A stretch of 64,000 nucleotides of DNA from Candidatus Fervidifonticultor sextus (GTDB lineage: Bacteria; Sysuimicrobiota; Sysuimicrobiia; Sysuimicrobiales; Humicultoraceae): contig JAVKHQ010000012.1 in assembly GCA_031459875.1 (NCBI GenBank), positions 1 to 64,000 on the forward strand, given 5' to 3'. Below are positions 15,001 to 21,000 of this stretch, piece by piece; position 1 is the first letter of the stretch, and every line of letters begins with the position of its first letter. A program made the position numbers.

Positions 15001-18000
15001 CCGGTGCCGATCGGGGGGTCGGTGGGCCGCCGGGAAGCCACCGGCCGCGGGCTCATGTTCGCCGCTCGAGCCCTGGCGCGGCTGCTGGGGCTGCCGTGGC
15101 GGGGCGCCCGGGTGGCCGTCCAGGGGTTCGGGAACGTGGGATCGGTGGCTGCCCGCCTGATGTGGGACGAAGGCTGCACGGTGGTGGCGGCCAGCGACGT
15201 CTACGGGGGGATCTACCATCCCGCCGGGCTGGACCTCCCGGCGCTGGAGCGGCACGTGGCCGCCACCGGCTCGGTGGGGGGATTCCCGGGCGCGGAGCCG
15301 GTGGCCAACCGCGATCTGCTGGAACTGCCCTGCACCTACCTGGTCCCGGCGGCCCTCGAGGGCCAGATCACGGCGGAGAACGCGTCCCGGATCCAGGCCC
15401 AAGCGATCATCGAGGGTGCCAACGGGCCCACGACGCCCGAGGCCGACGCGATCCTGGAGGCCCGCGGGGTGACAGTGCTGCCCGACATCCTGGCCAACAG
15501 CGGCGGCGTCGTCGTCTCGTACTTCGAGTGGGTCCAGGACCTCCAGATGGTCTTCTGGTCCGAGGAGGAGATCAACCGGCGCCTGGAGCGGATCATGGTG
15601 CGCACCGTGGACGAGGTCGTCGGGCTCGCGCGCGCGGAGGGCATCTCGCTGCGGCTGGCCGCGCTGCAGCGGGCCGTCGGCCGCGTGGCCGGGGCCCTGA
15701 GGGTCCGGGGGCTCTATCCGTAGCCGTCATCGCGCCCATGCGCTTCGAACTCCTCCACCAGGCCCCGCGCGGCCGCGCGCGCCTGGGCCGACTGCACACC
15801 GCCCGCGGGGTCGTGGACACTCCGGCCTTCATGCCGGTGGGGACCAACGCCACGGTGAAGGCACTGCTCCCCGAAGAGGTGGCGGCCACCGGGGCCCGGA
15901 TGATCCTAGCCAACGCCTTCCACCTGTACCTGCGACCGGGGGTCGAGGTCATCGCCGCGTCGGGGGGGTTGCACGCATTCATGGGCTGGTCCGGGCCGAT
16001 CCTCACCGACAGCGGCGGCTACCAGGTCTTCAGCCTGGCGCCCATGCGGCAGATCGACGAGGACGGCGTCACGTTCCGCTCCCCCTTCGACGGGTCGGTC
16101 CACCGCTTTACTCCTGAGGGTATCATCGAGATCCAGCGCGACCTGGGCGCGGACATCGTGATGCCCCTGGACGTGTGCCTGGGCTACCCCCACGAGCCGG
16201 CGCAGGCCAGGGAGGCGCTCGACCGCACACTGGCCTGGGCCGAGCGCGCCCGTGCCCACCACGCGCGGGTGGGGGGCGGAACGCTCTTCGGGATCATTCA
16301 GGGAGGCGCGGAGGCGGCGCTGCGGGTGGCGGCGGCGAAGCGGATCGCCGCGCTGGGCTTCCCCGGGTTCGCGCTGGGGGGGCTCTCGGTCGGCGAGCCC
16401 CCGGAGGTGAGCCGTGCCCTCATCGAGGTGGTGGTGGACGAACTCCCCCCGGAACGGCCGCGCTATCTGATGGGGGTCGGCGCCCCGCCGGCCGTGCTGG
16501 AGGGCATCGCCCGCGGAATTGACCTCTTCGACTGCGCGCTCCCCACGCGGGTGGCGCGGACCGGGGTGCTCCTGACCCGGGCCGGCCGGCTGAACCTCCG
16601 CAACGCCCGCTACCGCGCCGACCGCTCGCCGCCCGATCCCGCCTGTGGCTGCCGGGTGTGCGCCACGACCACCCGGGCCTACCTGCGGCACCTGTTCCAC
16701 GCCGACGAGATGCTGGGTCCGCGGCTGGCGACCTATCACAACCTCTGGTTCATGGGACGGTTGCTCGAGGAGGCCCGGGCGGCCATCGGCGACGACCGGT
16801 ATGCGGCGTGGATGGCAGAGGTCCTGGGCGCCTATGCGACGCCGTGGTGAGGAGGAGATGGCCAGCCGCGGTGGAACCTGTTGCGTGGTCGTGGTGAACA
16901 GGGGGACGGGCGATGCCGGCTCAGCAGGCGCAGCAGTATTACGTGGTCTTCTTCTGGATCTTGATCTTCGCCGTCTTCTACTTCCTCATGATCAGGCCAC
17001 AACGGATTCAGCAGCGCAAACGCCGCGAGATGCTGGAGGGTCTGCGGCGGGGGGACCGGGTGGTCACCATCGGCGGGCTGCACGCCACCATCGCCGATAT
17101 CAAGGATGATATCCTGACCCTGGACCTGGCTCCCAACCTCCGCGTGAAGGCGGACCGGGGGGCCGTGAGCTACGTCCGCTCGAAGGGAGAGGAGTGACCG
17201 TCAAGGAGGCCGCCGCGCCGATCCCAACCCTGGAGGACGTCAAGCGCGACCCCGAGGTCGAGGCATTCCTCAGCAAGGCCAACGAGTACACGGGCGTCAT
17301 CGGCTACACCGAGCACGGCCACCGGCACGCCAACCTGTGCGCCAGCATCGCCGCCAACGTGGCCCGGCGCCTGGGGTACGACGAGCGCACCGTCCAGCTC
17401 GCCGCCATCGCGGCCTACCTCCACGACATCGGCAACCTGGTCAGCCGCCTCAACCACGAGCACGTGGGCGCCCTGCTGGCGGACGGCATCCTGGCGCGGC
17501 TGGGCATGCCGCCCGATGAGCGCGCCATCGTCATGGGCGCCATTGGCAACCACGAGGAGAAGCACGGGGAGGCGGTTAGCGCCGTGGGCGCCGCGGTCAT
17601 TCTGGCCGACAAGTCCGATGTCCACCGCACCCGCGTGCGCAACCCCGACCGCGCCACCTTCGACATCCACGACCGGGTGAACTATGCGGTCGAGCACTCG
17701 TTCCTCCGCGTGGACGAAAAAAGCAAGACGGTTACCCTGGAGCTCACCATCGACACGGCCATGTCCCAGGTCATGGAGTACTTCGAGATCTTCCTCGACC
17801 GCATGCTCATGTGCCGGCGCGCGGCGGAATTCCTGGGGTGCGGGTTCAAACTGCAGATCAACGGCGTGAAGTTGCTCTAGTCCTGCCTCGTGCGCTCGCT
17901 GGTCCTGCTCCCCCTCTACAACGAGGCGCCGACGGTCGGCCGGGTCCTCGACCAGGTGCGCCGGCATGCGCCCCACTGCGAGATCCTGGTGGTGGACGAC

Positions 18001-21000
18001 GGCTCCACCGACGGCTCGCCCGAGGTCCTGCGGGCCTATCCTGAGATCACCGTCGTGACCCATGCCCAGAACGAGGGGTACGGGCAGTCGCTCATCGACG
18101 GGTTCGCCTACGGCCTGGCCCACGGCTACGACGCCGTGGTCACGCTGGACTGTGACGAGCAGCACGAGCCGCGCCAGATCCCGCAGTTCTTGGCCGCGCT
18201 GGAGGGGGCCGACATCGTCTCGGGCAGCCGCTACCTGGACCCCGGCCTGGGGGGCGATCCGCCGCCGCCGGACCGCCGCCGGCTCAACGAGGAGATCACG
18301 GCCAGGCTGAGGGCGCTGGTCGGCTACCCCATCACCGACGCCTTCTGCGGGTTCAAGGCCTACCGCGCCGGCGCGCTGCGGCGGCTCCACCTGACCGAGC
18401 CATCCTACGGGCTGCCGCTCCAGGTCTGGGTGCAGGCCGCGGCGGCGGGGCTGCGGGTCGTCGAGGTGCCGACCCCCCGCATCTACAAGAACCCCCAGCG
18501 CCGCTTCTGGGGCGGGCTGGACGACGTGGAGGTCCGGCGGCGATACTACGAAGAGGTGATGGAGCGAGAGGTGGCCCGGTGGCGTCCATCCTGGCGATAG
18601 GCCCTCACCCCGACGACGTGGAGATCGCCATGGGGGGGACCGTCTGCCTGCTGCTGGCCCAGGGGCACCAGGTGACCGTCTGCGACCTGACCAACGGCGA
18701 GCCCACCCCGATGGGAACCCCGCAGCGCCGCGCGGCCGAGGCCGCGGCGGCCGCGCGGCTCTTGGGCATCTCCCGCCGCATCACCCTGGACCTGCCCAAC
18801 CGCGCGCTGGAACACACCCTGGAAGCCCGGCGCCGGGTCGCCGAGGTGATCCGCGAGGTGCGGCCCGATGCGCTCTTCGTGCCCTACTGGGTGGACGCGC
18901 ATCCCGACCACGTGGCGGCCTGCTCGATCGCCGAGGCCGCCCGGTTCTGGGCCAAGCTGACCAAGACCGACATGCGCGGCGAGCCGCACTACCCCCGGCG
19001 CGTCTACCACTTCTTCAGCACCCACTACGCTCTGCATGTCAGGCCGTCGTTCATCGTAGACATCTCCCCCTACATGGAGACGAAGATGGCGGCGGTGGCG
19101 GCGTACGCGTCTCAGTTCAGTGCCGCCCGGGGCACCGCGTGGATCCTGGACGAGATCCGGGATGTCGGCCGCTACTTCGGGCGGCTCATCGCGCGCGACT
19201 ACGGCGAACCGTTCGTCTGCCGGGAGGAGATCGGCGTGGTGCGGTGGGACGGCCTGATCTGATGGACGAGGCCGCCCCCGGGCCGATCGCGTGGCCCGCG
19301 CTGGACGTGGAGATCCCCCCGACCTCGCCGGAGGCGGTGGCCGTGCCGCCCATGCCGCGGTGGCTGGATCTGGCCCAGAGCAACCGTGCGGGCCTGGACG
19401 CCGAGTCCGCCGACATCGCCGGGATGCCGCTCGCCGACCTGCGGCGTCAGGCCCGCGCCCAGGCCGCTGCCGCCGCGGCCGCCTACACCCGCGGTCTGGG
19501 CCTCGAGGTCGCCGGGGGGCGCCCCGATCTCCTGCTGTGCACCGGGCACCAGCCGACGCTCGTCCATCCGGGCATCTGGATCAAGTACCTGGCCCTCTCC
19601 CGTCTGGTGCCCCCCGGCGGGATCGGCCTCAGTCTCATCGTGGACAGCGACGCCGCCGACGAGATCTCAGCCGAGGTCCCGCGGGCCGACGGGCGGCTGC
19701 GCCGCGAACGGGTCGTCCTGGCCAGGGGCGGGCCGGAGGTGCCTGCCGAGCTCATCCCCGCCCCGACCGATGGAGACTGGCGGGCGTTCGTAGCCGAGGT
19801 CGACGCCCACCTCCAGACGCTCCAGGAGCCTGAGGTGGTCGCGGCTTGGGCGCGGGTGCGGGCGCTGCCACCGCCGCCGCGCGGCGCCGGCCTCTCCGGC
19901 GCGGTCACCTGGCTGCGGCGTACGCTGGAAGGGCGGCGGCCCTACCTCGACCTGCCGGTGTCGCAGGTCGCCGGCCTGCCCGCCTTCAGGCGGTTCGCCC
20001 TGGCGATCCTCGGGGATGCCCGCCGCTTCGCGGACCTCCACAACGTCTGCCTGGCGTCGTACCGGGAGCACTATGGCATCCGCACCGGTGCGCAGCCATT
20101 TCCAGACCTGATCGCAGACGCCGCCCGCGTCGAGGTCCCGTTCTGGTACTTCGCCGACGGCCGCCGGTGGCCGCTCTTCGCCGACGTCCAGCGCGGCCTG
20201 CTCGTCGTCGACGGCCGTCCCGTGGGTGCCCTGCCCGCCGCCGTCGACGACCCGGCCTTCACCGCACTGCCCATCCGGCCGCGGGCGCTGGTGCTCACGG
20301 CGTTCGCCCGCCTTGTGCTGTCCGACCTGTTCATCCACGGCGTGGGCGGCGGCCGATACGACCGAGCGACCGACGCCATCATCCGCGCGTTCTTCGGCGT
20401 CAGGCCGCCGGCCTATGCGGTCGTGACGGCGACGCTGTGGCTGCCGTTCGCCTCCGGCGCGCCGTCTGTCGCGGAACGGGTCCGGCTGCAGCGGCTGCTG
20501 CTGGACCTGCAGCACAATCCCGATCGGTACCTGCCCCAGGATGCGGGGCCGCACCGGGCGCTCGTCGAGGAGAAGTGGGCGCTGATCCGCAAACTGGACC
20601 AGTCCGGCCTGACCCGGCGCGAGCGGCGAGCGGCGACACAGCGCATCCGCGAGATCAACCTGATCCTCCAGGTGGTGGTGGCCGATCAAGTCGCGGAGGT
20701 CCAGGAGGCCCTGCGCGCCCTGGACCGCCGCGATCAGGATGCCGAGGTCACCGGCTACCGCGGCTTTCCGTTCCTGCTCCATCCCGTCGAGTCGGTCGAG
20801 GCGCTGGTCGATGCCCTGGGCCGTTGAGGTGGACGGGGTCGTCAAGGCCTACGACCACCGGCCGGTGCTCCGCGGGGCCAGTCTCCGCGTGCGGACCGGA
20901 CAGACCGTGGCGGTGCTGGGCGCCAATGGATCCGGCAAGACCACGCTGCTGCGCCTGGTGGCCACGCTCTCTTCGCCGACCCGCGGCACGATCCGGCTCT

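Follow-up and report, generated by a model that had tools for sequence, protein, structure and literature searches.

Low-molecular-weight thiols are few, and the new ones have each opened a field of enzymes. Bacillithiol, a bacterial antioxidant, is made by the GT4 glycosyltransferase BshA (TIGR03999), the deacetylase BshB1, whose known substrate is GlcNAc-malate, and BshC (TIGR03998, PF10079 plus PF24850; structure 4wbd, which has a citrate site), which adds cysteine to GlcN-malate. According to passages in PMC5790435 and PMC4360819, BshC dimerises through a coiled coil, and the passages of the former state that the BshC reaction has not been reconstituted, even in Bacillus. Mycothiol, the product of MshA, MshB, MshC and MshD, has a Cys-GlcN-aglycone design, MshA being a GT4 enzyme and MshC a CysRS paralog. 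The N-methyl-bacillithiol of Chlorobiaceae, which needs canonical bshABC and a methyltransferase, is a precedent for bacillithiol variants outside Bacillota. The survey for it required 30% identity to canonical bsh genes (PMC6282198), a threshold at which the ligase described here would be missed.

The window, the whole stretch of 64,000 nucleotides of Candidatus Fervidifonticultor sextus that we analysed, holds a cassette with the same three-step logic as bacillithiol synthesis, yet without BshA. Its three forward-strand genes encode a GT2 glycosyltransferase of 236 aa (17890..18600; PF00535, E 2e-27), which we propose replaces BshA; a BshB1-type (PIG-L/LmbE) zinc deacetylase of a variant subclass (18579..19262), which passes the BshB1 cut-off (TIGR04001, 216.7 bits against 182.5); and a 521-aa putative amino-acid (cysteine) ligase, assigned from its BshC fold and from profile homology (19262..20827). 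GC3 of the genes is 0.90-0.95. All three frames are open and overlap head to tail, by 22 nt between GT2 and deacetylase and 1 nt between deacetylase and ligase, and the overlapping trio of the genome-wide survey's note is thereby borne out. The note's operon is not a stand-alone one, since it is embedded in a longer co-directional run (tgt-yajC-HD ... ccmABC). The HD-domain gene in front (17194..17880, forward strand; PF01966) is not part of the cassette: it occupies this place in the host's family only and is missing upstream in 19 of 20 loci from other families. The cytochrome c maturation genes ccmA-ccmB-ccmC (20811..22822, forward strand; TIGR01189 over cut-off, PF03379, PF01578; predicted ccmA start) follow, and ccmA comes after the ligase gene in 36 of 49 related loci, across much of the phylum. 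A promoter and terminator scan gave no signal above shuffles, and none at the trio.

Conservation across the phylum, as claimed earlier, holds on a larger sample. A ligase homolog occurs in 78 of 81 genomes, and 48 of 50 loci have a complete trio (28/30, and 20/20 from four other families), the two exceptions among the first 30 being one locus cut by a contig end and one with GT2 and ligase only. The reported lack of BshA extends to all 81 genomes (TIGR03999, E<=1e-48, in a search whose control detects Bacillus, Thermus and Deinococcus), and canonical BshC (PF10079) is likewise found in none of them. The range given earlier was, however, too narrow: the cassette is multi-phylum, being present in Planctomycetota (anammox bacteria included), in Coriobacteriia and in one further lineage; archaeal cassettes exist as well. 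Of 42 metagenomic loci that extend far enough upstream, 38 keep the trio in this order, and the GT2 gene is next to the ligase gene in 78 of 80 Planctomycetota-dominated loci, both of which count in favour of a thiol pathway; a search of viral contigs found no relative. Blastopirellula marina and Tundrisphaera lichenicola each have the GT2-ligase pair together with a BshB1. The cassette offers a lead to the function of a ligase family of 3124 unannotated clusters (50% identity, E<=1e-3), some of which are mislabelled FliT. Our literature search found no account of a GT2-BshB1-ligase cassette.

With moderate confidence, we propose that the trio is a cytoplasmic pathway to a new cysteinyl-hexosamine thiol, parallel to bacillithiol synthesis. 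The GT2 enzyme would move an N-acetylhexosamine, most probably GlcNAc donated by UDP-GlcNAc, onto a small soluble anionic acceptor gripped by R114, R129 and N133, probably with inversion; the variant BshB1 would strip the N-acetyl group, and the BshC-fold enzyme would attach cysteine to the freed amine by acylation. The product, Cys-HexN-X, would be a low-molecular-weight thiol unlike bacillithiol in aglycone and/or linkage, and is likened in design to mycothiol. The genes, their folds, motifs and synteny and the mutual exclusion with BshA are observed; we infer the donor sugar, acceptor, anomer, amino acid (cysteine), thiol nature and redox role of the product.

The kinship of the ligase with BshC emerges from fold and profile. 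As the survey had noted, the protein has no Pfam or NCBIfam match, here at E<=0.1 and so below PF10079, PF24850 and TIGR03998. Nor did Pfam place a BshC domain in 82 homologs (E<=0.5), the FliT-like hits being weak coiled-coil matches, and even a 134-row profile searched against the PDB missed BshC, giving nothing beyond weak matches of helical or coiled-coil type (E>=0.67). The AlphaFold2 model (134 homologs; pLDDT 96, pTM 0.91) agrees with the BshC fold proposed before: 4wbd is the best Foldseek hit (E 7.3e-13, TM 0.52, 13% identity), ahead of class I LysRS (E 3e-4), and VIA-align gives Z 25.3 over 446 residues at rmsd 6.3, class I LysRS being the second-best fold (Z 18.9, rmsd 3.4). The model shows the 4wbd-type Rossmann core with insertions and a C-terminal coiled coil, whose helical hairpin spans 431-497. 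Profile comparison by hhalign with 23 BshC sequences taken from loci reached 88% locally and 93% globally, compared with 0.3% for reversed and at most 1.1% for 20 column-shuffled controls. At profile level, the two families share ancestry.

This alignment also places the BshC positions that the ligase keeps, namely those of GxQ, Lys, the two Asp, Gly and Tyr. The motif G95-H96-Q97-P...H102-P-G104-x-W-x-K108 (19544..19585, forward strand) corresponds to GQQ...GGPL...K (H96, Q97, G104 and K108 in 134/134 homologs, H102 in 130/134), D128-x-D130 (19643..19651, forward) aligns with the two Asp of EDHD (134/134 and 133/134), and H359-G-x-G-G363-x-x-Y366-D367 (20336..20362, forward) matches GPxExxY in the global alignment (H359, G360, G363 and Y366 in 134/134). 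The ligase nevertheless differs from BshC in reading GHQ for GQQ, with the His in all 134, and HGxGG for GPxE: in the numbering of a planctomycete BshC (L132), E355 is replaced by G363 and R379 is lost. Given these replacements and an identity to BshC of 10-13%, both of which count against a thiol, the amino acid could differ from cysteine. After the first strand, at the place of the class I HIGH motif, 130 of 134 ligases have H102-x-G104, which is missing from the canonical BshC rows. The KMSKS pattern occurs in just 1 of 134 ligases, and profile comparison with four class I synthetases of the same genome gave no signal (<1%); MshC shares a class I tRNA-synthetase-like fold with the ligase (Z 9.4). 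As a natural variant of BshC that has a HIGH-like histidine apparently lost in BshC, the ligase might allow an in vitro assay and open the unsolved BshC mechanism.

The deacetylase keeps the zinc motifs HPDDxE (residues 10-15) and HPDH (108-111), with R51 and E54 invariant, and carries a subclass signature, G40-E-P-T43-P44 with N74-R75 (18696..18803, forward strand), that sets GT2-linked apart from BshA-linked enzymes. T43, P44, N74 and R75 are present in 44/44 GT2-linked deacetylases, and GE-PTP in 46/46 additional sequences, whereas BshA-linked BshB1 reads G(T/S)R and D-G, with D at position 74 in 28/28. Active-site residues have changed together in all three enzymes, so that the product is probably not bacillithiol; the "other backbone" suggested by the survey gains indirect support from this co-change. 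An undescribed cysteine-sugar compound is probably made in several groups, planctomycetes and anammox bacteria included.

The GT2 enzyme resembles the catalytic domain of dolichyl-phosphate mannose synthase (DPMS) without its transmembrane part. Its best solved relatives by sequence are DPMS (5mlz) and ArnC, it superimposes on DPMS at Z 25.5 (rmsd 2.3, 219 aligned), and its top NCBIfam matches, all below cut-off, are the models for polyprenyl/dolichyl-phosphate transferases. With DPMS, ArnC, GtrB and PpgS it shares the GT-A fold, DxDxQH, the A-loop Arg and the acceptor-phosphate Arg pair. Its metal/donor motif D87-C-D89-x-Q91-H92 (18148..18165, forward strand; D89, Q91 and H92 in 112/112 orthologs, D87 in 111/112) has its counterpart in the DADLQH of PfDPMS, and R114, R129 and N133 (18229..18288, forward; each 112/112) are equivalent, by alignment to 5mlz, to R117, R131 and S135, given as acceptor-phosphate residues in the passages of PMC5526996 that cover both motifs. 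Both Arg are kept, and Ser135 has become an invariant Asn. Unlike those enzymes, the GT2 has no transmembrane segment (hydropathy exceeds 1.6 in only 2 of 112 orthologs, with a maximum of 1.66), and its interface helix 1 is polar (mean hydrophobicity -0.31; the 57 orthologs average 2.8 acidic residues there, the 11 paralogs have 0-1). The kept Arg pair and polar helix point to a soluble anionic acceptor.

The strongest test of whether GT2 replaces BshA is the gene content of 151 Planctomycetota genomes. The 521-aa-type ligase occurs in 35 and PF10079 BshC in 83, never together; BshA is in 77, every one among the 83, and a GT2 ortholog in 39, made up of the 35 ligase genomes (35/35, also where the gene is unlinked) and four BshA-less BshC genomes. 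GT2 and BshA do not co-occur in any of the 151, and the 33 genomes that lack any BshC-fold ligase have neither. BshB1 (E<=1e-46) follows the ligases, being present in 33/35 ligase, 79/83 BshC and 0/33 ligase-less genomes. The four BshA-less genomes carry a PF10079-type BshC with GHQ for GQQ; the two proteins checked both exceed the curated TIGR03998 cut-off, which ties GT2 to a true BshC. In this gene-content sense, the proposed substitution of GT2 for BshA is supported. Against the proposal, a quick BshB1 tree without outgroup places all GT2-linked deacetylases on the same side of one branch, so that the complete mutual exclusion and the signature residues may go back to one event in evolution rather than to several.

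It is conceivable, if unlikely, that the trio instead serves a lipid carrier, GT2 forming a polyprenyl-phospho-HexNAc whose amine is freed by the deacetylase, as in lipid A amino-sugar systems, and aminoacylated by the ligase for envelope modification. The closest solved GT2 relatives all act on polyprenyl phosphates, which fits this idea and counts against a thiol. In favour of a lipid role, GtrB is also among the top matches, the phosphate-binding Arg are invariant, and Coriobacteriia-type loci have, on the opposite strand downstream, PlsY and a gene of the DAG-kinase family. Passages of PMC5526996 add that a truncated DPMS catalytic domain is still membrane-targeted. However, the acidic helix 1 argues against such an acceptor, neither a flippase nor a GT-C membrane transferase appears in the lists or annotations of recurring neighbours, and strict BshA exclusivity and pairing with curated BshC would go unexplained. 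A soluble non-thiol aminoacyl-hexosaminide, a solute or cofactor on which the ligase would put an amino acid other than cysteine or some acyl group, is improbable as well: the changed ligase residues, the LysRS-like second-best fold and the scarcity of thiol-recycling genes speak for it, but the same GT2 and deacetylase subclass pair with proteins over the cut-off of cysteine-adding BshC, and Bdr-like and OsmC genes are neighbours.

Quite improbably, GT2 could be a retaining malate GlcNAc-transferase that displaced BshA in making ordinary bacillithiol. The deacetylase does score as curated BshB1, YpdA-like genes occur in 3 genomes, and the GT2 fold neighbours GpgS (Z 19.7), MpgS (19.6) and MGS (18.6), GT-A enzymes that act on small acids with a retaining mechanism. 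Yet wherever GT2 is present, deacetylase and ligase are both altered at conserved positions, and DPMS scores 5-6 Z above these enzymes. DPMS itself inverts, according to passages of PMC5526996, and we infer an inverting mechanism for GT2. That the trio is not one pathway, or that a distant GT4, a caveat raised by the survey, provides the substrate and GT2 is a passenger, seems very improbable. The genes are dispersed in many Planctomycetota and the host genome has 15 GT4-like hits, but GT2 accompanies the ligase even when unlinked, three lineages or more preserve the order of the trio, and the two top GT4 hits, the best with 149.9 bits against a BshA cut-off of 273.7, belong to an exopolysaccharide cluster.

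Within the proposed thiol pathway, it is conceivable, though doubtful, that GT2 performs the base-free chemistry of DPMS on a phosphate oxygen of its small soluble acceptor, giving a beta-linked cysteinyl-glucosamine-1-phospho compound. If so, sugar-based thiols would gain a third class after mycothiol and bacillithiol, and Planctomycetia, anammox bacteria, the host phylum and Coriobacteriia would have it as their main thiol. A new thiol is predicted in lineages whose tested genomes yielded no genes for glutathione, mycothiol or bacillithiol, cultured planctomycetes and anammox bacteria among them, and standard thiol profiling could test it. Neither GshB nor MshC (TIGR03447) exceeds its cut-off in any of 5 test genomes; GshB is also below cut-off in the 35 Planctomycetota ligase genomes, which discriminates little since only 2/151 have it. 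Unlike in bacillithiol recycling, YpdA is rare (none in the host genome) and bacilliredoxin (PF06491) is found in 0/5 genomes, both counting against a thiol. Counting for one, YpdA/Bdr-like reductases occur in 3/35 ligase (as sub-cut-off homologs), 9/83 BshC and 0/33 ligase-less Planctomycetota genomes, in one genome two genes from bshB1, and OsmC lies directly upstream in 17 Coriobacteriia-type loci. In 32 of 74 planctomycete loci the gene after the ligase encodes an Eis-like GNAT, which could, by analogy, have an MshD-like role.

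The three-gene cassette of a family-2 glycosyltransferase (GT2), a BshB1-type deacetylase and a 521-residue protein with the BshC fold (the ligase) is real: it is a variant of the bacillithiol pathway conserved in several phyla, in which the first enzyme is non-orthologous and the second and third have co-evolved. As the genome-wide survey's note had described, our ORF reading gives three open frames overlapping head to tail on the plus strand: the GT2 (17890-18600, Pfam GT2), the deacetylase (18579-19262, 216.7 bits against the curated BshB1 cut-off of 182.5) and the ligase (19262-20827, recognised by fold match).

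The ligase has no Pfam or NCBIfam match at E<=0.1, and searches of PDB sequences, including one with a 134-row profile, returned no BshC. The kinship proposed in the note is nevertheless confirmed at the level of fold. The predicted model (pLDDT 96) has BshC 4wbd as its top match in Foldseek (E 7.3e-13, TM 0.52, 13% identity; second, class I LysRS at E 3e-4) and in VIA-align, where 48,161 chains were compared and 446 residues align with Z 25.3 and rmsd 6.3; LysRS comes next there at Z 18.9, and further class I synthetases score 10.5 or lower. A comparison of its profile with that of 23 canonical BshC from the fetched loci gave 88% (local) and 93% (global), against 0.3% for a reversed alignment and <=1.1% for 20 column shuffles. 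In this alignment, GHQ falls on GQQ, K108 on a conserved Lys, D128/D130 on EDHD and Y366 on the Tyr of GPxExxY, while Gly363 stands in for the Glu of GPxExxY and nothing corresponds to BshC R379. Thus, the 521-residue protein is a remote relative of BshC. Its family numbers 3124 clusters at 50% identity, and none of the 82 members tested matched a BshC Pfam domain. Among the best 120 of 229 homologs all are hypothetical or unnamed, and several homologs carry the NCBI label Armatimonadota, which leads us to read the phylum as CSP1-3; family members P0277-P0288 are named 'flagellar protein FliT' at NCBI, apparently through a weak coiled-coil match. Loci L172-L176 hold a divergent, shorter branch (430-460 residues) that retains the GHQ type and a nearby GT2. 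The ligase H102-x-G104 sits where class I synthetases have HIGH and is absent from canonical BshC rows; with neither a KMSKS motif nor a profile match to class I synthetases found, it is a lead only.

Conservation of the trio and absence of BshA across Sysuimicrobiota also held. A ligase homolog occurs in 78 of the 81 genomes (53 of 54 good ones), and 28 of the best 30 loci hold the whole trio (one ends at a contig end, one lacks the deacetylase), as do 20/20 additional loci picked from four other families. Neither BshA (E<=1e-48, a threshold that recovers Thermus in a control) nor PF10079 was found in any of the 81. G072 and G007, both unpublished, and one G072 locus are counted in these tallies, and no claim depends on them alone. 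The GT4s of the source genome most like BshA (149.9 and 112.8 bits) both belong to an exopolysaccharide cluster. The trio of this phylum is a segment of a longer gene run: the ligase is followed by ccmA at 36 of 49 related loci, and at 17 of the 20 additional ones the trio has hemB before it, surroundings not seen again among the listed neighbours from other phyla. As read from the window (20811-25516) and from L340-L359, the phylum's trio lies between heme synthesis genes (hemB, in some loci also hemL or hemD) and ccmABC, and some genera have a peroxiredoxin or CcmG/CcmH in place of ccmABC. One of the 20 additional loci has a short-chain dehydrogenase-like gene, on sequence reading, inserted between GT2 and bshB1 (L356:2001-2708). 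Further upstream in the window, 13616-14314 on the minus strand encodes a 232-residue protein without a Pfam match, in which a short charged repeat occurs twice, the copies being connected by Ala/Pro linkers.

That the GT2 stands in for BshA, as the note had suggested, is borne out by a single sample of 151 Planctomycetota genomes searched gene by gene. The ligase is present in 35 and PF10079 BshC in 83, with no overlap, which leaves 33 without either; the 77 genomes that have BshA all belong to the 83. BshB1 (E<=1e-46) accompanies the ligase in 33/35 and BshC in 79/83, and is found in 0/33 of the remainder. The GT2 profile separates an ortholog group (>=277 bits; one contig-end fragment, 202) from a background of <=162, and this group comprises exactly 39 genomes, namely all 35 with the ligase and 4 of the 6 BshC genomes that lack BshA. 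Three of these four GT2s went into the profile, which was built without the fourth and without many of the 35. In the four genomes, BshC has GHQ at the GQQ position and GGGE at the GPxE position, and in three of them it adjoins the GT2. Among 30 fetched BshC loci, these 4 are GHQ and the other 26, all from BshA genomes, are GQQ. Since the GT2 is co-distributed with BshC-fold ligases where BshA is absent, it occupies the place of BshA. The GHQ/GGGE proteins (L135-L137, L147, L167-L170) would be annotated as ordinary bacillithiol genes, because both of the two tested exceed the curated TIGR03998 cut-off. The split between GT2 and BshA may be a single ancient event, since kin are not independent and the GT2-linked deacetylases, GHQ group included, fall on one side of one branch (54 versus 28 rows, SH-aLRT 99, in a tree built by a quick method with no outgroup). 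At L138-L140, L143, L146 and L148, canonical BshC of the GQQ type adjoins another GT2 that scores more weakly against the ortholog profile (64-81 bits), and BshA is present in these genomes as well. The BshC-like protein encoded at L171:5667-7283 is divergent (TIGR03998, 111.5 bits) and lacks the GxQ motif; searches of its genome for BshA, GT2 and BshB1 found none, and one further such genome is G105.

It is possible that the three genes share no common pathway, and their linkage does vary. A genome scan for the ligase found 580 loci, of which 80 were retained (78 labelled Planctomycetota); BshB1 does not adjoin the GT2-ligase pair in these, yet exceeds its cut-off elsewhere in 5/5 genomes tested. 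All three genes are scattered in three genomes that carry an anammox 16S probe site. However, an orthologous GT2 (44-57% identical) lies directly 5' of the ligase in 78 of the 80 loci. In a metagenome scan, 80 of 550 loci were retained; the upstream stretch measures >=1400 bases in 42 of them, and of these 38 hold the complete trio in the window's order, 3 GT2 and ligase, and 1 neither. A third clade, Coriobacteriia by NCBI names, and a low-GC lineage among the metagenomic carriers also have the cassette, and we regard unrelated functions as highly improbable. In the low-GC lineage (L322, L333, L337), the GT2 is immediately preceded by a Na/Pi cotransporter gene in the same orientation.

One candidate product, bacillithiol itself, would fit a deacetylase over the BshB1 cut-off, but it appears unlikely. 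GT2-linked deacetylases keep the zinc motifs. All 44 have T43, P44, N74 and R75, with a basic residue at 126; at these five positions the 28 BshA-linked enzymes carry G/A, T/S, D, G/A and, for the most part, G. Metagenomic sequences outside the set used to define these signatures carry GE-PTP in 46/46 deacetylases, Arg-x-x-x-Asn in 47/47 GT2s and GHQP in 66/66 ligases. The product therefore probably differs from bacillithiol. A lipid-linked product, slightly less doubtful, is suggested by the nearest solved structure to the GT2, dolichyl-phosphate mannose synthase (Z 25.5; then ArnC 20.4 and GpgS 19.7), which PMC5526996 describes as inverting, without a catalytic base, and holding the acceptor phosphate by Arg117, Arg131 and Ser135. 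GT2 R114, R129 and N133 align to these and are invariant in 112 orthologs. However, the orthologs have no TM segment, and interface helix 1 is polar, with a mean of 2.8 acidic residues, whereas the 11 paralogs compared, whose acceptors are not known, have 0 or 1. We infer that the acceptor is a soluble anion, possibly a phosphate.

A new cysteinyl-hexosamine thiol is the product we favour, with somewhat better than even confidence. Pairing of the GT2 with curated BshC argues for a thiol, as do a YpdA/Bdr-like reductase in 3/35 ligase, 9/83 BshC and 0/33 ligase-less genomes (in one genome of the GT2 type this flavoprotein gene, L189:86-1114, is only two genes away from bshB1), OsmC directly 5' in 17 Coriobacteriia-type loci, DinB-family proteins in 4/5 genomes, and the lack of GshB or MshC over cut-off in the five test genomes. 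Against it, and in keeping with a non-thiol conjugate, which we consider a minor prospect, stand the strong divergence of the ligase from BshC, the absence of YpdA from the source genome and of bacilliredoxin from all five test genomes. The OsmC-family gene lies directly 5' of the GT2 (as at L275:4160-4585), and a small ferredoxin gene recurs downstream.

The cassette resembles bacillithiol synthesis in its manner of working, but falls outside that pathway in that BshA is absent, BshC profiles are unmatched and the GQQ motif is replaced. Our picture of that pathway follows PMC5790435 and PMC4360819, by whose account the BshC reaction itself is still unsolved. The survey in PMC6282198 uses a 30% identity cut and would miss the cassette; the passages of PMC7278568 consulted note archaeal homologs for BshA and BshC only, and PMC9324843 has no bearing on the cassette. 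We found no published description of the cassette in a search of literature open without subscription. An Eis-like acetyltransferase with an SCP2-like tail (L045:7632-8999, L069:7618-9021 and others) comes directly after the ligase at 32 of the 74 planctomycete loci that leave space for it, with no clear ortholog in the source genome; by analogy with MshD, it may tailor the product.
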